From Planctomycetota bacterium (GTDB lineage Bacteria > Planctomycetota > Phycisphaerae > Phycisphaerales > UBA1924): a stretch of 10,600 nt of DNA. A program made the translations under genes and the position numbers. The stretch is taken from contig JANRKN010000165.1 of assembly GCA_033763435.1 (NCBI GenBank), positions 1 to 10,600 on the forward strand. Direction: 5' to 3'. Under the pieces are notes generated by a model. That model ran no database searches and was not told where the DNA came from. It saw only the letters and a list, made by a program, of their open reading frames with translations. Positions within the stretch are counted from its first letter, which is position 1; each line of letters opens with the position of its first letter. Below are positions 1 to 8,677 of this stretch, piece after piece.

Positions 1-165
1 GGGTGAGGCGAGGGTGAAACGGGTGGATCGCGCGTGGGGTGCCACCGGTCCGACGAGGCGCAGCCTCGGCGAGACTGGTGCCGAACTCGGCCCGCGTTCA
101 TCGGGCACCACTCTTCGCTTCGCTCCGAGTGGTGGCACCCAAGGCGGGGCCGCCACTGGCTCGGC

Positions 166-266: not shown

Positions 267-866
267 ATGATGTTTGCGACGGATCGGGACGTGCTGGCGC
301 TTTCGCCGCGGGTGTTCAATGAGTGCGCGTGGGCGGGTCAGCGGCGCGTGTCGGGCACGGGGACGATCACCGGCGCGGCGCTGACGATGACGGCGTCGGA
401 CGTGACGCTCGAAGCGGCGGGCGTGGACGCGGGGCACGTCGCGCTGATCGACGATGTGCCGCACGAACTGCTCGCGCGCACGGGGCCGAGCGCGATCGGC
501 ATCAGCCGCGTGCGTTCGAGGCCCGAGGACGCGCCGATCCCGCCCGCGCCGGGCACGGGGAGGCAGGTGCGCATCGTGACGTTCGCGCCGCAGCTCGCGG
601 CGGCGCACGCGCGGATCCTCACCGCGGCGGGGCTGGAATCCTCGGACGAATCGCGCATCGTCAACGGGAGCGAACTGGCGATGCTCGAGGCGGTGTGGGC
701 GTTGTCGGCGATCTGGGCCGGGGCGCGCGGCATCGGCGACACGAGCGCGACCGAACGCGCCGCGTGGTTCCATCGCGAGGTCGGCGTGCTGCGCTCGCGC
801 ATGCGCGTGAGGCTCGACACGGGCGAAGAGCGCACGCTCACGGGCCTGCGCCTGGTGCGGGAGTGA
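267..866 (+). CDS. hypothetical protein, 199 aa (the ORF-track 39..866 ORF trimmed to the ATG after the RBS)
   Basis: AGGAGG at 257-262 followed 4 nt later by ATGATG (267-272). The region upstream of 267 in this frame is G-rich leader (G4 motif, hairpins) with R/G/P-rich translation. Strong G/C third-position bias within 267-866. Stop TGA at 864-866. No recognisable domain. N-terminus MMFATDRDVLAL is loosely reminiscent of Mu gp36-like (DUF1320) phage proteins, but this is weak. Confidence 0.6.
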   Translation: MMFATDRDVLALSPRVFNECAWAGQRRVSGTGTITGAALTMTASDVTLEAAGVDAGHVALIDDVPHELLARTGPSAIGISRVRSRPEDAPIPPAPGTGRQVRIVTFAPQLAAAHARILTAAGLESSDESRIVNGSELAMLEAVWALSAIWAGARGIGDTSATERAAWFHREVGVLRSRMRVRLDTGEERTLTGLRLVRE

Positions 867-873
867 GAACTCG

Positions 874-966
874 GGTGGCACGGCTTGAGTGGGCTTGGGC
901 GCTCAAGCCGTGGAGGCGCACACAACGCACGGCTTGGCCCGAGCGCCAAGCCGTGGCACCCAAGAG
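874..966 (+). repeat. Two tandem REP-like palindromic hairpins (11-bp stems): B1 879-912 (cacggcttgag / 12-nt loop / ctcaagccgtg) and B2 928-955 (cacggcttggc / ccgagc / gccaagccgtg), followed by the motif GTGGCACCCAAG (953-964)
   Basis: Perfect 11-bp inverted repeats read directly from sequence. B2 is the exact reverse complement of the hairpin at 6134-6161. Sits in the 123-bp gap between two same-strand CDSs. Confidence 0.7.
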
Positions 967-989
967 ACAGCTTCATCGACGAGGGAACC

Positions 990-1379
990 ATGCTCATTCT
1001 CGATCCGTTGGATGTTTCATTCGGCGCGCGGTCGTGGCGCGATGTGCGGTCGCTGGCGGTGAGTGTCGAGGCCGCGCGCGTCGCGGAATCGTGGTCGGAC
1101 CTTGGGCCCTGGTGCGTGTTCGCCGACGTGCCCGAGCGGCGCGTGCGCGTGCAGATCGTGCGGAGTTTCGAGGGCTCTGAGCTGGCCGCGCCCGCCGTGG
1201 GCGATGAGGCGCTGCTGACGTTCACCGTCTCCGAGGGCGGGAGCGAGAGCGCGCGGCAGGTGGTCGCGCGGTGCGTCGTGACGGCCGTGCGCCACGAGAT
1301 CGCGCAGGGCAAGGCGGTGCAGCGGCTCGACCTGCTCGCGCTCTCCGAGACCGGCGGCGCGACGCCGATCGAGATGTAA
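990..1379 (+). CDS. hypothetical protein, 129 aa (ORF 885..1379 trimmed to the internal ATG)
   Basis: GAGGGA at 981-986, then ATG at 990. The region upstream of 990 in frame is occupied by the REP-like hairpins, so the longer ORF is implausible. High GC3. Stop TAA 1377-1379. No recognisable motif. Confidence 0.55.
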   Translation: MLILDPLDVSFGARSWRDVRSLAVSVEAARVAESWSDLGPWCVFADVPERRVRVQIVRSFEGSELAAPAVGDEALLTFTVSEGGSESARQVVARCVVTAVRHEIAQGKAVQRLDLLALSETGGATPIEM

Positions 1380-1409
1380 CCTCAGGCCCGCACACAGAAG
1401 GATCAACCC

Positions 1410-1790
1410 ATGAGCAGTTATAAGGGGCAGGACATCTTCGGCTCGGGCCCGCACCGGTTCAGCGCGTCGCCGCGGGGGCAGCTGCTGATCAGCGCGCTGA
1501 GCCAGAACCAGTTCGATCCGAGCAGCATCCCGCTGGGGCTGCTGGAAGAAGAGGTGCGCGTGCGCGGGCGGCTGGTGGGCACGAGCCAGGCGCAGCTCCG
1601 CCAGCGGATCGACGCGGTGAACGCGCTGCTGGAGAACCCGCCGACGCCGGGCACGCTGATCGACGAGCACGGCAAGCAGTACGCGGGCATGAGCTTCGTG
1701 CGCTTTGAAGAAGAGGACCGCACCGACCGCGGGCGCGTGTGCAGCGTGGCGTACGAGGCGGTGTTCCGGCGGTTGATCGTGATGCAGTAA
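1410..1790 (+). CDS. hypothetical protein, 126 aa
   Basis: GAAGGA at 1397-1402, 7 nt spacer, ATG 1410. High GC3. Stop TAA 1788-1790. Begins 30 nt after the previous CDS, so probably co-transcribed with it. No recognisable motif. Confidence 0.6.
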   Translation: MSSYKGQDIFGSGPHRFSASPRGQLLISALSQNQFDPSSIPLGLLEEEVRVRGRLVGTSQAQLRQRIDAVNALLENPPTPGTLIDEHGKQYAGMSFVRFEEEDRTDRGRVCSVAYEAVFRRLIVMQ

Positions 1791-1825
1791 AGCAGGCCAG
1801 TGGGCAGTGTGAACGGCCTCTCGTC

Positions 1826-1945
1826 GGGTGCCCCGAGTCGAGGGATCGAGCCCGTGGGCGAGATCCTGAGCCTCGGGCCGTTGGGCCCGACGCGCGCGAT
1901 GACGCTGCGCGCCATCACGCGGGTCGGGGCACCCTCACGCGCGCC
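1826..1945. repeat. Composite intergenic repeat element, copy 1: conserved core gggtgccccgagtcgagggatcgagcc...gcgagatcctgagcctcgggccg...cccgacgcgcg; a 20-bp imperfect inverted repeat (1886-1905 / 1909-1928, 17 of 20 pair); and a degenerate ggggcaccc unit (1926-1945)
   Basis: Nucleotide-level similarity to 6184-6312 seen by direct alignment. Reading frames differ between the two copies, so conservation is at DNA level, not protein level. Confidence 0.65.
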
Positions 1946-2005
1946 GATGCTTGACTGTTCTCCCCACGGGCTCTTCCCCACGAGCGTTCTTCTCAGGAGC
2001 TTCTC

Positions 2006-2302
2006 ATGGACCTGACTCTCGCGACGGAACTGGGCACGCAGATGGGCACGGCCGCGCTGCTCGGGTGGATGTGGATGAGCGAGCGGCGCGCCTCGGCCCG
2101 GCGTGAGCGGCTGCTCGAAGAGGCCCACGCGCGTGTGCTCGAGCAGTGCGCCAGCGCGCGCGAGGTCGCCCGCGCGCTCGATGCGACGGCGGTCGCGGTC
2201 GATCGCAACGCGCGCGCCGTCGATCGGCTGGACCGCGGCGTGGGTGCGCTGCTCGCGCGCATGCTCGGCGGACGCGACCAGCGCGCCGAGGCCGCGGATT
2301 GA
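2006..2302 (+). CDS. hypothetical small protein, 98 aa; short hydrophobic N-terminal segment (TAALLGWMWM) followed by an Arg/Ala/Glu-rich predicted helical, coiled-coil-like region
   Basis: AGGAG at 1995-1999, 6 nt spacer, ATG 2006. GC3 bias. Stop TGA 2300-2302 lies 19 nt before the next CDS, suggesting translational coupling. Possible -35-like TTGACT at 1951-1956. Confidence 0.5.
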   Translation: MDLTLATELGTQMGTAALLGWMWMSERRASARRERLLEEAHARVLEQCASAREVARALDATAVAVDRNARAVDRLDRGVGALLARMLGGRDQRAEAAD

Positions 2303-2321
2303 GCCCGTGTATGATCCACCG

Positions 2322-2990
2322 ATGCCCGCGCGATCGGCTCCCATCCTTGGTTTGGCCCCGGCGTCGGCCTCGTTGTTGGCCTCGGTGTTGGCTGCGGCGT
2401 TGGCGCTCTCGGGCTGCGGCTGGATGACCGGCTCGCGCCAGACGGCCGGTGAACGCTCGCCCGCGGCGGGCGAAACGCGCCTCACGCCCGGCCCCGCGCT
2501 CAACCCCTTCGCGCCCGCGTCGGTGCGGCTCTACCCGCTCACGCACGCGCAGCCGATGGGCCCCGGCGGGCGGCCCGTGCTCGTGGTGCACGTCGAGGTG
2601 AAGGACGCGTGGGGCGATTCGATCAAGTCCGCGGGCGAGATGGTCGTGCGCGTCGCGCCGCTCTCGGGCTGGAGCGGTCTGACGCGCGACGCCGCCGCCA
2701 AGGACGCGGGCAAGGACGCGGGCCGGGGCCCGGGAAGCGCGCGTGAAGAACCCTCGCGCTGGCGGATCGACATGACCGAGGCGGAGCTGAACAGCGCGTG
2801 GTTCGACCCCGCGACGCGCACGTATCAGGTGCGGCTGAGCAACCTGCCCGCGTGGATGGAAGAGGGCATCCGCCAGGGCGCGGGCAAGGACGGCAGCGAC
2901 CGCACGCTGCGCATCACCGCCGAGTTCACCGCGCTCAATGCCGAGGGACAGGTCAAGACGTTTTATGACGAGCTCGACCTGCGGCTGTGA
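2322..2990 (+). CDS. putative lipoprotein, 222 aa (ORF 2103..2990 trimmed to the in-frame ATG that begins a lipoprotein signal peptide)
   Basis: Translation from 2322 is MPARSAPILGLAPASASLLASVLAAALALSGC: a charged n-region, a long hydrophobic h-region and an L-S-G-C lipobox. The in-frame extension 2103-2321 translates to an R/S-rich non-protein-like sequence and overlaps the upstream CDS. The mature protein has no recognisable domain. Confidence 0.6.
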   Translation: MPARSAPILGLAPASASLLASVLAAALALSGCGWMTGSRQTAGERSPAAGETRLTPGPALNPFAPASVRLYPLTHAQPMGPGGRPVLVVHVEVKDAWGDSIKSAGEMVVRVAPLSGWSGLTRDAAAKDAGKDAGRGPGSAREEPSRWRIDMTEAELNSAWFDPATRTYQVRLSNLPAWMEEGIRQGAGKDGSDRTLRITAEFTALNAEGQVKTFYDELDLRL

Positions 2991-3004
2991 GCGGCTGAGG
3001 TTTT

Positions 3005-3034
3005 CGTGATGGGGCTGTACGTGATGGGCCTGTG
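3005..3034 (+). promoter_or_regulatory. 15-bp tandem direct repeat (cgtgatggggctgta / cgtgatgggcctgtg), 80-110 bp upstream of the 3116 CDS; candidate regulator-binding site
   Basis: Direct reading of the sequence; 13 of 15 positions identical between the two units. A regulatory role is inference only. Confidence 0.25.
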
Positions 3035-3115
3035 TGACCCCCTACGGCAGCCGAACGAAACCGCTCTTCCGCATCAGGCTGGATTCCACCCCGTCCCTCG
3101 GCGACAATCACCGCG

Positions 3116-4576
3116 ATGCCCACGCGCGACCAACGTTGTCTGACTGTGCCGACACGCGCGAAGGCGCGCGCCGCGGGGCTGGGCGTCAGCGCGCTCGTGC
3201 TGGCCGCGGGGCTCGCGCTCGCGCAGCCCGATTCCTCCCCATCCCCGACCCCACCCCCGACTCCCACTCCGACGCCAACGCCCGAGCCAACGCCCGAGCC
3301 GACACGGGAACCAGAATCTGCGCCCGAGGCGGAGGACGCGATCGAGGACATCGAAGAGACGATCGTGACGTTCCTCGACGGGCGCAAGGTGACGGGCGTG
3401 CTGATGATGATCGAGCGCGAGGCGCTGACGCTGCGGATCGGTCCGATCGAGCAGCGGTTTGCGACGCGTGAGATCGACCGGTGGGAGACGTTGCCGCCGA
3501 TCAGCGTGCGCTATCGCGAGATGCGCGCGTCGATCCCCGACCGGGACACCGACGCGCGGCTGGTGCTCGCGCAGTGGCTGGCCGACAAGAAGCGGTACGA
3601 CCTGGCGCTGAAGGAAGTGGAATCGATCCTCGTCTCCGAGCCCGGCCATCCGCAGGCCGAGCAGATGAAGCTGCAGTACGAGAAGCTCCAGGAGCTGGCG
3701 CGCAAGGGCACGTCGCGGACGGTGCCGGGCGAGCCCGTGCGCAAGCGCGCGCCCGAGGCGCCCGCGCGGAGTTTCCCGGTGCTGAGCGAGGAGCAGATCA
3801 ATCTGATCAAGGTGTACGAGGTGGACCTGCGCGACCCGCCGCGGATGATCATCCCGCGCGAGCTGATCGACGAGCTGATCGCGCGCTTCAAGGACCACCC
3901 CGCGATGCCGCGGACGCAGGAGGGGCGCGACGATCTGTACCGTCAGCGGCCCGATCAGATCGTGGACCTGCTCTTCCGCGTGCGTGCGCGCGAGCTGTAC
4001 GGGAAGGTCAAGGTCCAGGACCATCCGCCCGCGTTCAAGCTCTTCCGCGACCTGGTGCACTCCTCGTGGCTGATGAACTCGTGCGCGACCACGCGCTGCC
4101 ACGGCGGAGAGCAGGCCGGGCGACTCATGCTCACCGCGCGCAGGCCCAACTCCGACTTTGCGGTCTACACGAACTTCCTGATCCTCGACCGCTTCCGGAT
4201 GCGCGACGGCACGCCGCTGCTGAACTGGGATTCGCCCGCGCAGTCCGCGCTGCTGCAGCTGGGCCTGCCTCGCAACATCTCGCGCGTGCCGCACCCGGAC
4301 GTCACCGGCCCGCGGGGCCAGCGCGGGTGGGAGCCGGTCTTCGCGACCGAGCAGGACCAGCGCTTCCAGGACGCGCTGCGCTGGATGAACGCGATGTACC
4401 GCCCCCGCCCCGAGTACCCGATCGACTACGCGCTGCCGACGCCCGGCACGGCCTCAGGTGCCGCCGCGCCCTCGAGCCCTGCACCTTCGAGCCCTGCACC
4501 CTCGGCGCCGAGCACGGGCAACGCGGGCAGCCCCGCGCCCGCGGGGGGCAATCAGCCGGGCAACCCGCCGCGGTGA
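3116..4576 (+). CDS. secreted protein, 486 aa: signal peptide, acidic Pro/Thr-rich linker (PTPTPTPTPEPTPEPT), central domain, a planctomycete-cytochrome-like segment with the non-canonical motif C-x4-C-H (CATTRCH), and a Pro/Ser/Ala-rich C-terminal tail
   Basis: Signal peptide RAKARAAGLGVSALVLAAGLALAQP. The segment FKLFRDLVHSSWLMNSCATTRCHGGEQAGRLMLTA resembles the C..CHG...LRLD region of planctomycete cytochrome-c-like domains (PSCyt-type) from memory, but carries CX4CH instead of CXXCH (coding nt 4082-4102). The start could alternatively be the in-frame GTG at 3146 (MPTR / VPTR). There is no clear SD. Confidence 0.7.
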   Translation: MPTRDQRCLTVPTRAKARAAGLGVSALVLAAGLALAQPDSSPSPTPPPTPTPTPTPEPTPEPTREPESAPEAEDAIEDIEETIVTFLDGRKVTGVLMMIEREALTLRIGPIEQRFATREIDRWETLPPISVRYREMRASIPDRDTDARLVLAQWLADKKRYDLALKEVESILVSEPGHPQAEQMKLQYEKLQELARKGTSRTVPGEPVRKRAPEAPARSFPVLSEEQINLIKVYEVDLRDPPRMIIPRELIDELIARFKDHPAMPRTQEGRDDLYRQRPDQIVDLLFRVRARELYGKVKVQDHPPAFKLFRDLVHSSWLMNSCATTRCHGGEQAGRLMLTARRPNSDFAVYTNFLILDRFRMRDGTPLLNWDSPAQSALLQLGLPRNISRVPHPDVTGPRGQRGWEPVFATEQDQRFQDALRWMNAMYRPRPEYPIDYALPTPGTASGAAAPSSPAPSSPAPSAPSTGNAGSPAPAGGNQPGNPPR

Positions 4577-4710
4577 TGAACGCGCGCCAGTACGCGTGGG
4601 CGCCCGATTCTCGGACTCGCGCGCCGCGGGTGGACCGCCTCGGGCGTTCCGTGTTGCTCGCGGGCCGCGCCAACCCGGCAAAGCCCCTCCAATCCGTTGA
4701 TTGTGCTGGG

Positions 4711-4738
4711 TTTCAGGGCCGCCGTAGACCGTTATGAT
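4711..4738 (+). promoter_or_regulatory. candidate sigma70-like promoter for the 4803 CDS (-10 TATGAT at 4733-4738; weak -35, either GTTTCA or TTCAGG, at 4710-4716)
   Basis: Good -10 hexamer about 65 nt upstream of the start, but the -35 is poor. A better TTGATT hexamer (4697-4702) is 30 nt away, which is the wrong spacing. Speculative. Confidence 0.2.
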
Positions 4739-4802
4739 GGGCTCTTCCACCGTGCGGTTGCGACGCGAGCGATCTGGCGCTGGATCGGAGAAGGAGCCCG
4801 CG

Positions 4803-5951
4803 ATGACGTTCACGTCCCTGATTCGCCTGATCGCGATCGCCTCGATCGCGGGCATCGGCGCGAGCGCCTCGGCGCAGATCACGATCCCCACCGTGCCCGT
4901 CGGCGACCCCGGCAACAACTGGGATTCGAACAACGGCCGCGGCTCGGTCTGGTACACGTACAACATCGGCACGTTCGAGGTGACCGCGGGTCAGTACGCC
5001 GCGTTCCTCAACGCCGTCGCACGCTCGGACCCCAACAACCTCTACACCCCCGATCAGGCCCGAACCGACTACGGCAGCGGCATCGCGCGCACCGGCACCC
5101 CCGGCAGCTACACGTACACCGTCGCCCCCGCGTTCGTGAACCGGCCCGTGAACTACGTCTCGTTCTGGGATGCGTGCCGCTTTGTCAACTGGCTGCACAA
5201 CGGCCAGCCGACCGGCGCGCAGAACGCCAGCACCACCGAGGACGGCGCGTACACGCTGACCGCCGCGGGCATCAGCGCCAACACCATCACCCGCAACGAG
5301 GGCTGGCGGTGGGCCGTGACCAGCGACGACGAGTGGTACAAGGCCGCGTTCTACAAGGGCGGGGGCACCAGCGCGGGCTATTGGTTCTTCCCCACCCGCA
5401 GCAACACGCCCCCGACCAACGACCTGAACGATCTCTCGGGCAACAGCGCCAACTACCGATGGGGCCCGGGCGCGTTTCCGATCCAGAGCCCGTACTTCAC
5501 GACGGTCGTGGGCCAGTTCGCCAACTCGCCCAGCCCGCACGGCACGTTCGACATGGCCGGGAACGTGTGGGAGTGGACCGAGCGCATCACCAGCCGAGAC
5601 CGCGTCCTCCGGGGCGGGTCGTTCATGAGCGAACTCCTGGCCGTACCCAACTACCCCGTCGCGTCCTACGGCGCACTCTTCCACTACGCCCCGCAGGCCG
5701 AGTACTTCGCCTGGGGCTTTCGTGTCGTTCAGAAGCCGCCCTGCGCCGCCGACTTCGACGGCTCGGCCTTCGTCGACGCCGACGACTTCGTCTTCTTCCT
5801 CGAACAGTTCACGCTCGGGTGCACAGGCCCCGGCCAGGACGTGTTCGGGCCCAATCCCAGCTGCGTGAAGAACGCCGACTTCGACGGCACCAGCTTCATC
5901 GATGCCGACGACTTCGTCGCGTTCCTCGCGGCGTTCCAGGCGGGTTGCTGA
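4803..5951 (+). CDS. formylglycine-generating-enzyme (FGE/SUMF1) family domain protein, 382 aa, with an N-terminal signal peptide and two C-terminal Cys-flanked dockerin-like / EF-hand-like Ca-binding repeats (ORF 4734..5951 trimmed)
   Basis: GGAGAAGGAG at 4787-4796, then ATG 4803 giving MTFTSLIRLIAIASIAGIGASASAQ (signal peptide). FGE-sulfatase hallmarks are present: PVNYVSFWDACRFVNW, DEWYKAAF, GNVWEWTERI and RVLRGGSF. The C-terminal repeats are CAADFDGSAFVDADDFVFFLEQF...GC and CVKNADFDGTSFIDADDFVAFLAAF..GC (DNA direct repeat 5748-5810 / 5874-5936). Confidence 0.85.
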   Translation: MTFTSLIRLIAIASIAGIGASASAQITIPTVPVGDPGNNWDSNNGRGSVWYTYNIGTFEVTAGQYAAFLNAVARSDPNNLYTPDQARTDYGSGIARTGTPGSYTYTVAPAFVNRPVNYVSFWDACRFVNWLHNGQPTGAQNASTTEDGAYTLTAAGISANTITRNEGWRWAVTSDDEWYKAAFYKGGGTSAGYWFFPTRSNTPPTNDLNDLSGNSANYRWGPGAFPIQSPYFTTVVGQFANSPSPHGTFDMAGNVWEWTERITSRDRVLRGGSFMSELLAVPNYPVASYGALFHYAPQAEYFAWGFRVVQKPPCAADFDGSAFVDADDFVFFLEQFTLGCTGPGQDVFGPNPSCVKNADFDGTSFIDADDFVAFLAAFQAGC

Positions 5952-6133
5952 GCGGGAAGGCCGGGTGGGCTGGGTGGCATCCAAGGCCGGGGCACCCGAT
6001 CACCTTCTCCGCCTTTCGAGCCCCGAAGGGGCGCACGGGCTGTAGCCACGGGTGAAGTGAGCGAGTCTTCGAGCGAGCGCAACCCGTGGAAGGTCGCGCC
6101 CTCTCGCTCTCGAAGTCGTCCTTAGCTGGGTGG

Positions 6134-6161
6134 CACGGCTTGGCGCTCGGGCCAAGCCGTG
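6134..6161. repeat. REP-like hairpin B3 (cacggcttggc / gctcgg / gccaagccgtg), the inverted-orientation copy of the 928-955 hairpin; shares the flank gggtggcacggcttg with the 874-890 copy
   Basis: Exact reverse-complement identity with 928-955, read directly from sequence. Confidence 0.7.
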
Positions 6162-6183
6162 GTGAAGCGTCCGCGCGCGCGGG

Positions 6184-6312
6184 GGGTGCCCCGAGTCGAG
6201 GGATCGAAGCCGCCCCGTTGGGTGGGGGGCGGCGAGATCCTGAGCCTCGGGCCGAAGGACGCCTCACGCCCGACGCGCGTCGCCCATCAGAGCCTGGGCT
6301 CCGCGAGTCGGG
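6184..6312. repeat. Composite intergenic repeat element, copy 2: the same conserved core as 1826-1928, with a roughly 20-nt insertion (gccgccccgttgggtggggggcggc, itself hairpin-forming), ending in a cccgacgcgcg...ccgcgagtcggg hairpin
   Basis: Direct alignment with copy 1. Identical blocks are ggtgccccgagtcgagggatcga, gcgagatcctgagcctcgggccg and cccgacgcgcg. Translated frames of the two copies differ, so it is not a conserved peptide. Confidence 0.65.
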
Positions 6313-6420
6313 GCACCCGATGCAGCATCACGCCGGGGCACCCGATGCAGCGTCAAGCCGTGGCACCCGATGCAGCGTCAGGCCGGGGCACCCGATGCAG
6401 CGTCACGCCGGGGCACCCGC
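6310..6420. repeat. Tandem array of 4.4 copies of a 25-bp unit (ggggcacccgatgcagcgtcacgcc; units at 6310, 6335, 6360, 6385, partial 6410-6420), contiguous with composite element copy 2
   Basis: Units read directly; 1-3 substitutions per unit. No intervening unique spacers, so not CRISPR. Truncated versions of the unit occur at 1926-1945 and 5987-6013. Confidence 0.75.
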
Positions 6421-8127: not shown

Positions 8128-8200
8128 AAATGCGTGCGCGAGGCGGGCGCGGCACGGGAGAACCCCGCCAGCGCCGGGAAGAATGTGGACCCCGAAGGTA

Positions 8201-8223
8201 CGAACATAGCCGGGCTGTGTTCG
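8201..8223. promoter_or_regulatory. 23-bp near-perfect palindrome CGAACATAGCCGGGCTGTGTTCG (one mismatch), 75-95 bp upstream of the permease start in the divergent intergenic region; candidate dimeric-regulator operator
   Basis: Dyad symmetry read directly: 11 of 12 half-site positions pair. The function is inference. Confidence 0.3.
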
Positions 8224-8277
8224 CCGGTCACGGCCCGCGGGCCTTCCGCGTGCGCAAGGGTTGCGGGGCTGGGCTTG

Positions 8278-8329
8278 CTGGTTGGGCCTGCTGGTTGGGC
8301 CTGCAGGTTGGGTTGGCAGGTTGGGCTTC
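8278..8329. repeat. Four tandem 13-bp G-rich units (ctggttgggcctg x2, caggttgggttgg, caggttgggcttc), flanked by further GGG runs from 8265 to 8333 (G4-capable on the + strand)
   Basis: Direct reading of the sequence. Lies between divergent genes: about 150-200 bp upstream of the permease start and about 350 bp upstream of the SPFH gene start. Confidence 0.6.
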
Positions 8330-8677
8330 GGGACGATGAAGTCCCCAAAGGCGGGCCGAACCCAGGGCCCCGCGCGGCTGTATAGAGGATGCCGATCGAC
8401 AGGGAATCGGCGAATGGCTGGAAAGCGACCCCCGGGCGGCTCACAATACCGCCCCGGTCCCTCGACCGGCCTCGGGCCCGCCTTCGGGCCCGGCGCTACC
8501 TCTTCTCTGTGGGCCTTCGGTGTTGGGGCATTGGGACGTCGGGCGAGTTCTTCGTCCGGCGGAGTGCGCGGGTTGGAAGCAACGGAGTGCGCCGCCGGGC
8601 CTTGGGTCCCGGCTCGCTGTGCGTCCGAGACTGTGCGTGGGGGGCTGTGTGTGTGACTGAGGTCGGCTGGAGCGTCC

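Follow-up and report, generated by a model that had tools for sequence, protein, structure and literature searches.

What are the hairpins that recur in the gaps between genes of a 10.6-kb stretch of DNA (the window, which is an entire contig of a metagenome-assembled genome [MAG]), and which enzyme, if any, acts on them? A sequence-only reading had compared them to REP/BIME-type elements and had set a recurring 12-mer apart from them. Here, we report that the hairpins belong to nine tagged units, which are likely REP elements of a Phycisphaerae-wide family, mostly arranged as REPIN/BIME-like inverted doublets. A clade of REP-associated tyrosine transposases (RAYT) is proposed to use them as DNA substrates.

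Repeat units in the window

Eight of the nine tagged units form four inverted doublets (37-140, 873-961, 1826-1934 and 6184-6318), with tags facing outward in all four, and one is a singlet (6128-6161). Every unit has two unlike ends, in that a GGGTG(C/G) tag is followed by a hairpin of 7 to 12 bp that mostly begins with CAC; the stem beyond these bases is variable, as is the loop. The units measure 34 to 68 nt, REPs being about 20 to 50 nt long, and carry the same tag on three stem types (A, B and C).

Type C forms doublet 37-140. Its left half (37-80, plus strand; tag GGGTGC at 37-42; hairpin CACCGGTC...GACTGGTG) was located with the tag-plus-hairpin scan, and its inverted half (minus strand) occupies 106-140. 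The 12-mer GTGGCACCCAAG does occur in exact copies at 132-143 and 953-964 and in a one-mismatch copy at 5974-5985, as first reported; it is no separate module, being the last three nucleotides of a hairpin arm (stem end GTG), the tag of the opposite strand (GCACCC) and AAG. The copy at 132-143 had been placed inside an imperfect hairpin at 125-164, which is not the relevant structure there: the real unit consists of hairpin 106-134 (CACCACTC...GAGTGGTG) and tag GCACCC (135-140).

Type A supplies the three hairpins that had been singled out before (879-912, 928-955 and 6134-6161), each at the coordinates first assigned to it. Unit 873-912 (plus strand; tag GGGTGG at 873-878; stem CACGGCTTGAG) begins 7 nt past the stop codon of gene 267-866, and its hairpin has an 11-bp stem and a 12-nt loop, which the hairpin finder lengthens to 12 pairs (one mismatch) around a loop of 8 nt. 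It forms a REPIN/BIME-like doublet with unit 928-961 (minus strand; tag GCACCC at 956-961), whose hairpin has an 11-bp stem and the loop CCGAGC. The singlet (6128-6161, plus strand; tag GGGTGG) also has an 11-bp stem, with the loop GCTCGG. Hairpins 928-955 and 6134-6161 are indeed reverse complements of each other, and the match runs on into the flank (97% complementarity over 35 nt between 928-962 and 6127-6161). Units 6128-6161 and 928-961 are reverse complements apart from a single mismatch, in the stem-adjacent base of the tag.

Type B forms two doublets. Unit 1826-1877 (plus strand; tag GGGTGC; longer imperfect hairpin CCCGAGTCG...CTCGGG) is closed into doublet 1826-1934 by unit 1886-1934 (minus strand; hairpin CCCGACCCG...CGTCGGG in minus-strand reading; tag GCACCC at 1929-1934). 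Unit 6184-6251 (plus strand; tag GGGTGC and long hairpin) repeats 1826-1877 in direct orientation, its centre being 16 nt longer, and unit 6269-6318 (minus strand) closes its doublet. A tRNA-derived origin was considered for type B, in which GGGATCGA resembles a tRNA 3' end read on the opposite strand, and was rejected (no ARAGORN tRNA; no Rfam match at E ≤ 1).

Leading into unit 6269-6318 is a tandem array of truncated units (6309-6419, minus strand; 25 nt × 4.4), in which four repeats consist of GGGTGC plus 19 nt and one repeat bears the type A arm CACGGCTTG at 6354-6362. Similar tag stutter occurs beside REPs that flank RAYT genes at five other loci (L122, L127, L128, L130 and L134). A further tag-bearing stretch, GGGTGG-CATCCAAGGCCGGG-GCACCC (5972-5997, no strand assigned), contains the one-mismatch copy of the 12-mer; it has no significant fold (z = −0.13) and is probably a decayed remnant.

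The units far exceed chance expectation. The 9-mer CACGGCTTG has seven exact copies (0.15 expected; none of 200 shuffles reached seven), the 12-mer has six copies at up to two mismatches (0.9 expected), and the tag GGGTGSC occurs 16 times (5.5 expected in the window). A strict search for tag plus hairpin gave 10 occurrences in the window, against 0.73 in shuffles (maximum, 4); it was preferred to a one-mismatch tag scan, whose 17 occurrences against 8 in shuffles meant an excess of false positives. Placement was equally biased: 15 of the 16 GGGTGSC tags are intergenic, although intergenic DNA makes up 20% of the window, and all nine units and array 6309-6419 are intergenic; units and array alike lack a terminator-like T-run. 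Checks of orientation and placement had been called for, and they found both orientations and the extragenic restriction expected of REPs.

The units are short imperfect palindromes able to form stem-loops, with significant folds (z = −4.7 for singlet 6128-6161). Each doublet, an inverted pair of REPs across a spacer of 8 to 25 nt, folds jointly into a single extended hairpin (z between −3.0 and −6.7), which is the arrangement that defines a REPIN or BIME. The values are z = −4.4 for doublet 37-140, −6.4 as RNA and −6.7 as DNA for 873-961, −4.6 for 1826-1934, and −3.0 for 6184-6318.

Tag and stem

The tag, (G)GGTGC or in some copies GGGTGG, is conserved, unpaired and confined to one side of the hairpin, as is characteristic of REPs. 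It was recovered independently of its definition, in that a survey of hairpins in RAYT flanks that was blind to the tag again ranked GGGTGC first among adjacent 6-mers. In 71 hairpins from RAYT flanks, the tag was always confined to one side of the stem; among the matches listed, 55 of 81 Phycisphaerae/Planctomycetota hairpins were tagged on one side and none on both, the other 26 having no strict tag. The same tag precedes 52 distinct stem arms, every one with a complementary partner; stems vary by compensating substitutions, and the tag remains unchanged.

The tetranucleotide GTAG, by which REPs are commonly recognised, is not the tag here; in its place stands a GTGC or GTGG core within the longer GGGTGC. 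We regard this as a variant and no ground for exclusion, because degenerate tags (GTRG, GTMG and GTGG) have been accepted, GTGG in the PVC bacterium Opitutus terrae (Di Nocera et al. 2013, PMC3733652). GTAG repeats are listed for the planctomycete R. baltica in the same work.

Distribution in related genomes

A genome scan found the repeat at at least 119 loci, mostly in MAGs of Phycisphaerales, Phycisphaeraceae or Tepidisphaerales. Copies were plentiful in these relatives and several MAGs had multiple matches, with at least 26 hairpins on at least 13 contigs of SLDI01 and at least 13 hairpins on at least 10 contigs of JBIOJL01 (all among the matches listed). Inverted doublets are common in these relatives too, and a 15-mer of tag plus stem, GGGTGCCACGGCTTG, is identical in two orders, Phycisphaerales and Tepidisphaerales. 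The repeat family spans the class Phycisphaerae and is not a property of one genome. Between the window and the 119 scan loci listed, there was no similarity other than the repeats themselves, and the exact 28-mer hairpin had no match in the metagenome collection. Singleton matches outside Planctomycetota were at about chance level (~165 expected in 596 Gb), and some were ordinary terminators.

RAYT genes in relatives

There is no transposase gene in the 10.6-kb window, in agreement with the sequence-only reading; relatives have one beside the same repeats. In locus L091, an open reading frame (1162-1716, minus strand) matches E. coli TnpA-REP (PDB 4ER8; E = 7e-9) and scores 102 bits on the NCBIfam model NF047646, "REP-associated tyrosine transposase" (cut-off, 80), but fails the IS200 model (18 bits; cut-off, 55). 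All 32 homologues compared retain H64 and H66 of the HUH motif together with Y140, the tyrosine of the catalytic motif. Model score, HUH motif and catalytic tyrosine motif all place the protein in the RAYT family.

The L091 gene sits between inverted GGGTGC-CACGGCTTG hairpins, and the RAYT genes of L120 to L123 are likewise bracketed by inverted tagged hairpins (14 of 15 tagged hairpins intergenic, with an intergenic share there of 12.9%). Flanking of a RAYT gene by inverted REPs of the same type is thus found in relatives. Tagged hairpins lie within 300 nt of the gene at 67 of 85 homologous RAYT loci and on both sides at 46 of 76. The flanks hold 169 of them (2.25 in shuffled flanks), and their density falls from 3.5 per kb beside the gene to 0.12 per kb farther off (~30-fold). 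Each of the three stem types of the window has a RAYT-flanking counterpart as well: CACGGCTTG in L122 and L124, CCCGACTCG in L137 and L139, and CACCAGTCG in L131. Within 20 kb, the tagged hairpins of L120 to L122 are solely beside the RAYT gene, which indicates that dispersal is very different between genomes. We infer that the source MAG also has a RAYT gene; none of the ten top RAYT clusters came from it, as judged by accession number.

Proposed mechanism

The tag, the inverted doublets, the dispersed copies and the hairpin-bracketed RAYT genes of relatives bear out the original REP/BIME interpretation. By analogy with E. coli TnpA-REP, the units would be cleaved and mobilised by RAYTs, which are single-domain HUH/Y1 nucleases. 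Where DNA becomes single stranded, as at a replication fork, the hairpin would fold, and the RAYT would read both its shape and the sequence of the tag. Cutting and rejoining of the single-stranded DNA beside a unit could then carry single units or whole doublets in trans to intergenic sites. We know of no system in which RAYTs have been directly demonstrated to mobilise REPs in vivo. Hairpins transcribed downstream of genes would probably form barriers at the 3' ends of mRNAs as well. The repeats are of a known kind, selfish or domesticated, and are a new example of REP elements.

Alternative explanations

The hairpins could instead be RNA elements under selection (terminators or 3'-end stabilisers), spread by ordinary recombination and only incidentally associated with RAYTs, which we consider improbable. 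Their strength would suit such a role (folding energies of −27 kcal/mol at 6120-6170 and −62 kcal/mol across the doublet region 867-970), as would the start of doublet 873-961 just behind a stop codon and the lack of any unit in the 550-nt gap between divergent genes (8128-8677). However, intrinsic terminators were rejected, with no T-run after any unit and no unit at any of five terminator-like sites. The units also stand in both orientations relative to transcription, Rfam gave no match to them, a terminator needs no conserved, unpaired, one-sided tag, and the ~30-fold higher density beside RAYT genes speaks against this account. A secondary role as RNA elements has been reported for E. coli REPs, and the units described here may have such a secondary effect.

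Still less likely, the units are subterminal hairpins of decayed IS200/IS605-type insertion sequences, that is, dead ends of insertion sequences and not REPs mobilised in trans. RAYT homologues do match Pfam Y1_Tnp (PF01797) and, weakly, IS200, and the hairpins of L120 to L122 occur only beside the gene, as ends of an insertion sequence would. Against this, nine units stand in 10.6 kb with no trace of a transposase open reading frame in the window, and only 1 of 119 loci selected by hairpin has a RAYT gene (among the matches listed). The protein passes the RAYT equivalog cut-off and not that for IS200, as described above; moreover, the left and right flanks of the gene are one element inverted, whereas the two ends of IS200/IS605 elements are unlike each other.

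That the doublets are MITEs moved by a DDE transposase is barely credible: although all four have inverted termini of 14 to 17 nt (GGGTGCCACGG.../...CCGTGGCACCC) and total lengths of 89 to 135 nt, none is flanked by a target-site duplication or direct repeat, a lone unit exists (6128-6161), each "terminal repeat" is already a complete hairpin, and the associated enzyme is of the Y1/HUH type.

Comparison with known systems

As REP elements, the units share with the GTAG-tagged REPs (E. coli REP/BIME, Pseudomonas REPINs and the GTAG superfamily of Di Nocera et al. 2013) an imperfect palindrome with a one-sided unpaired tag, extragenic placement in both orientations, frequent inverted doublets, several stem sub-families within one genome, and a single-domain HUH/Y1 gene bracketed by inverted copies. 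They differ in their longer tag, (G)GGTGC or GGGTGG with a GTGC/GTGG core in place of GTAG, in a largely conserved CAC at the start of the stem, in the 15-mer held identical across Phycisphaerales and Tepidisphaerales, and in the frequent tandem duplication of tag-proximal partial units. BIMEs in the E. coli sense are defined by linker motifs that bind IHF or gyrase, and such motifs are specific to enterobacteria; the term is used here as an architectural analogy only. In the literature searched, neither REPs nor RAYTs were described for Phycisphaerae.

Class 3 TnpA-Y1 "REPtron-like" elements are known from Planctomycetes and Acidobacteria, with the protein motifs NHVH, W[TA] and YV..EQ and a CnGA foot (Quentin et al. 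2018, PMC6006769). Both systems comprise Y1 genes of Planctomycetes flanked by high-copy secondary structures with a short 5' foot, and the class was a tempting assignment because Acidobacteriota appeared in the scan. It was ruled out by the proteins, which bear the class 2/RAYT signatures EHVH, WQ and YIHxNP, and by the different foot, the tag GGGTGC; as judged from these motifs, Phycisphaerae RAYTs and class 3 TnpA-Y1 are different families. Similarity to IS200/IS605 (IS608 TnpA) extends to Y1/HUH chemistry and to the recognition of subterminal hairpins in single-stranded DNA, both predicted for the enzyme here. In contrast to those elements, the protein falls below the IS200 cut-off and the hairpins are dispersed without the gene; an IS608 TnpA query had no match in the loci.

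Significance

The REP-RAYT system, with a variant tag, is hereby extended to a poorly studied class of Planctomycetota. For Phycisphaerae MAGs, this provides an annotation rule (GGGTGC, then a hairpin starting with CAC) for repeats that break assemblies and can pass for regulatory motifs or small RNAs. With its unchanging tag, its freely co-varying stems and its thousands of RAYT homologues, the family is also a natural data set on sequence reading versus shape reading by RAYTs, and the same data bear on how long REPIN-RAYT pairs persist.

More tentatively, and on balance doubtful, the REPIN-RAYT pairing may be unusually ancient and vertical, going back to the base of the class, with the stutter as a footprint of RAYT cutting and rejoining. 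The 15-mer common to two orders and the tag that is constant over ~50 stem variants could mark such an ancient partnership. The truncated copies of tag and proximal arm directly 5' of full units, as in array 6309-6419 and the five stuttered loci named above, could show the site at which the RAYT cuts and rejoins.

Tagged hairpin units in the window

The window carries an extragenic repeat of tagged hairpins, arranged in part as doublets (two REP units inverted to each other), which in related genomes is physically associated with a clade of REP-associated tyrosine transposases (RAYTs). The three REP-like hairpins claimed by the sequence-only reading (879-912, 928-955, and 6134-6161) are present, and the last two are reverse complements of each other, as it had said; the inverted match extends beyond the hairpins (928-962 versus 6127-6161; 35 nt, 97% complementarity). 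Recurrence of hairpin and 12-mer is real and not chance, with seven exact copies of the stem 9-mer CACGGCTTG in the window (0.15 expected; 0 of 200 shuffles reached seven) and six of the 12-mer GTGGCACCCAAG including near copies (0.9 expected). The same reading had set the 12-mer apart from the hairpins. Because GGGTGG directly precedes the forward hairpin copies at 873 and 6128, and GCACCC (reverse complement of GGGTGC) directly follows the inverted copy at 928-955, GTGGCACCCAAG is instead stem end, tag, and AAG, a single element.

Tag GGGTGSC occurred 16 times in the window (5.5 expected), and the intergenic restriction for which a check had been proposed was found, 15 of the 16 lying in intergenic DNA, which by supported gene models makes up ~20% of the window. 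A strict scan (tag directly followed by hairpin) returned 10 units in the window versus 0.73 in shuffles, 9 of them intergenic, with three stem types. Type A (stem start CACGGCTTG) comprised three units, at 873-912 (+), 928-961 (−), and 6128-6161 (+), the sign giving the strand on which the tag precedes the hairpin; type B (CCCGAGTCG / CCCGACxCG) comprised four, at 1826-1877 (+), 1886-1934 (−), 6184-6251 (+), and 6269-6318 (−); and type C (CACCRGTC) comprised two, at 37-80 (+) and 106-140 (−), the latter being the better reading of an imperfect hairpin formerly placed at 125-164. Eight of nine window units pair, tags outward, into four doublets, each predicted to fold as one long hairpin (z, −3.0 to −6.7). 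Tags without a fold at 5972-5997 look like the remnant of a unit, and the scan found no REP units in the 550 nt that separate two divergent genes (8128-8677). A small tandem repeat (GGGTG/GCGGGTGGGGT, 164-194) follows directly after the first doublet, and a 13-nt tandem repeat (TGGGCCTGCTGGT, ×3.3) lies at 8270-8326, between the divergent genes.

RAYT genes and their flanking hairpins

E. coli TnpA-REP (sequence identical to PDB 4ER8) was searched against all open reading frames (ORFs) of the loci from other genomes and matched one, at L091 1162-1716 (−) (E = 7e-9). In the profile search this ORF reached 102 bits with the NCBIfam model for “REP-associated tyrosine transposase” (NF047646; cut-off, 80) and fell below the IS200 cut-off. 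This gene is flanked on both sides by GGGTGC-CACGGCTTG...CAAGCCGTG, the two copies being inverted to each other. A second tagged hairpin, GGGTGC-CACGACTCGCCG...CGGCGCAGTCGTG, occurs in direct copies (L091 1050-1112 and 1812-1875) that enclose the RAYT-plus-REP unit, which gives a nested arrangement of REP types about the gene. Homologues numbered 7,319 at E ≤ 1e-10; among the best 120 of these, every named taxon was Phycisphaerales, Phycisphaeraceae, or Planctomycetota, and one protein was named REP-associated tyrosine transposase. The two HUH-motif histidines and the motif tyrosine were invariant in the aligned homologues.

The same bracketing was found in four RAYT homologues on long contigs (stems CACGGCTTG, CACGGCTTG, CACTGCTCG/CACGACTCG, and CACACTTTG). 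A strictly tagged hairpin lay ≤300 nt from the gene in 67 of 85 RAYT loci; where sequence sufficed on both sides (76 loci), 46 had one on each side and 34 the canonical layout, tags outward. Across the 85 loci, tagged-hairpin density was 3.5 per kb near the gene versus 0.12 further away, and flanks held 169 tagged hairpins versus 2.25 when shuffled. In a tag-blind hairpin survey of RAYT flanks, GGGTGC was the commonest adjacent 6-mer, and its variants retained GTGC. Directly after the tag stood 52 different 7-nt stem arms, mostly CAC at positions 1 to 3 and freely varying thereafter, always with a complementary partner. All three window stem types have a counterpart flanking some RAYT.

Proposed mechanism

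Structure 4ER8 of E. coli TnpA-REP and the associated biochemistry form the basis of analogy. By that analogy, the RAYT would act on single-stranded DNA, recognising the tag by its sequence and the stem by its shape, and then cut and rejoin adjacent to the unit, which would account for unit dispersal in trans; the constant tag and compensating stem changes fit this division. Tandem copies truncated to tag plus proximal stem arm (periods, 13 to 26 nt) lie directly on the tag side of full units and often adjoin a RAYT gene (L122 10604-10669, L127 503-548, L128 217-272, L130 846-888, and L134 191-237). The longest, at window 6309-6419 (25 nt × 4.4 of tag plus 19 nt; five tags, 25-nt spacing), leads into full unit 6269-6318 (minus strand). 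Such arrays may be a by-product of RAYT cut-and-rejoin chemistry or may be a product of replication slippage. Once transcribed, the hairpins may plausibly have a secondary role at the 3′ ends of mRNAs. The units are not terminators, since no T-run follows any of them in the window; tRNA-like elements were rejected (tRNA search of the window negative), and no Rfam family matched the units.

Distribution and relation to known systems

When one genome of each species was scanned with CACGGCTTG-N6-24-CAAGCCGTG, at least 119 loci matched. Among the matches listed, the majority were Phycisphaerae MAGs (Phycisphaerales and Tepidisphaerales; lineage checked), several with many matches each, further copies being plentiful in these related genomes. 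Also among the matches listed, tag GGGTGC/GCACCC always stood on exactly one side of the hairpin, doublets (spacer, ~16 nt) were frequent in related genomes, and other phyla contributed singletons of the kind chance predicts, save one Acidobacteriota family. Closest other homologues of the window's SPFH protein were ~50% identical, those with a source name being mostly Phycisphaerales; the window makes up an entire contig (10,600 bp) of an NCBI MAG labelled “Planctomycetota bacterium”, to which protein MDX2018434.1 belongs.

Acidobacteriota (mostly Pyrinomonadaceae) carry a different high-copy palindrome, GAGACACAGAGA-CACGGCTTGAAG...CTTCAAGCCGTG-TCTCTGTGTCTC, with the same 9-mer core, a long extended outer stem, and no GGGTGC tag (L007, L015, L021, L022, L029, L033, L065, L087, L093, L095, L097, L098, L107, L109, L110, and L113). 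This family is unrelated, the 9-mer alone being common to both; an ORF search saw no RAYT in these 16 loci. Variant tag GGATGC/GCATC stands beside CACGGCTTG hairpins in L034 (5051-6795), L041, and L075 (Phycisphaeraceae CAYSIX01) and L023 (6994-7466), within longer arrays where two hairpin types alternate (periods, ~164 or 218 nt).

Together with the RAYT genes of related genomes, the repeats make up a REP-RAYT system like those of the GTAG superfamily, with a variant, longer tag (GGGTGC in Phycisphaerae elements versus GTAG). The PVC group was already known to hold tagged REPs, among them repeats in Opitutus terrae, where the tag is GTGG, and in R. baltica (PMC3733652). Class 3 Y1 elements of Planctomycetes were rejected as a different family, by protein motifs and foot sequence (PMC6006769). 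A literature search turned up no earlier account of such elements from Phycisphaerae.

Other features of the window

Six consecutive same-strand predicted genes within 267-4576 (267-866, 990-1379, 1410-1790, 2006-2302, 2322-2990, and 3116-4576) had no Pfam match at E ≤ 0.01; the last contains a Pro/Thr-rich 12-nt tandem repeat (3237-3300). At the end of an FGE-sulfatase-domain protein (4803-5951), a D-rich motif resembling dockerin or EF-hand, DFDG..F.DADDFV.FL, is present twice and forms a direct DNA repeat (5747-5802 and 5873-5928; 84% identical).
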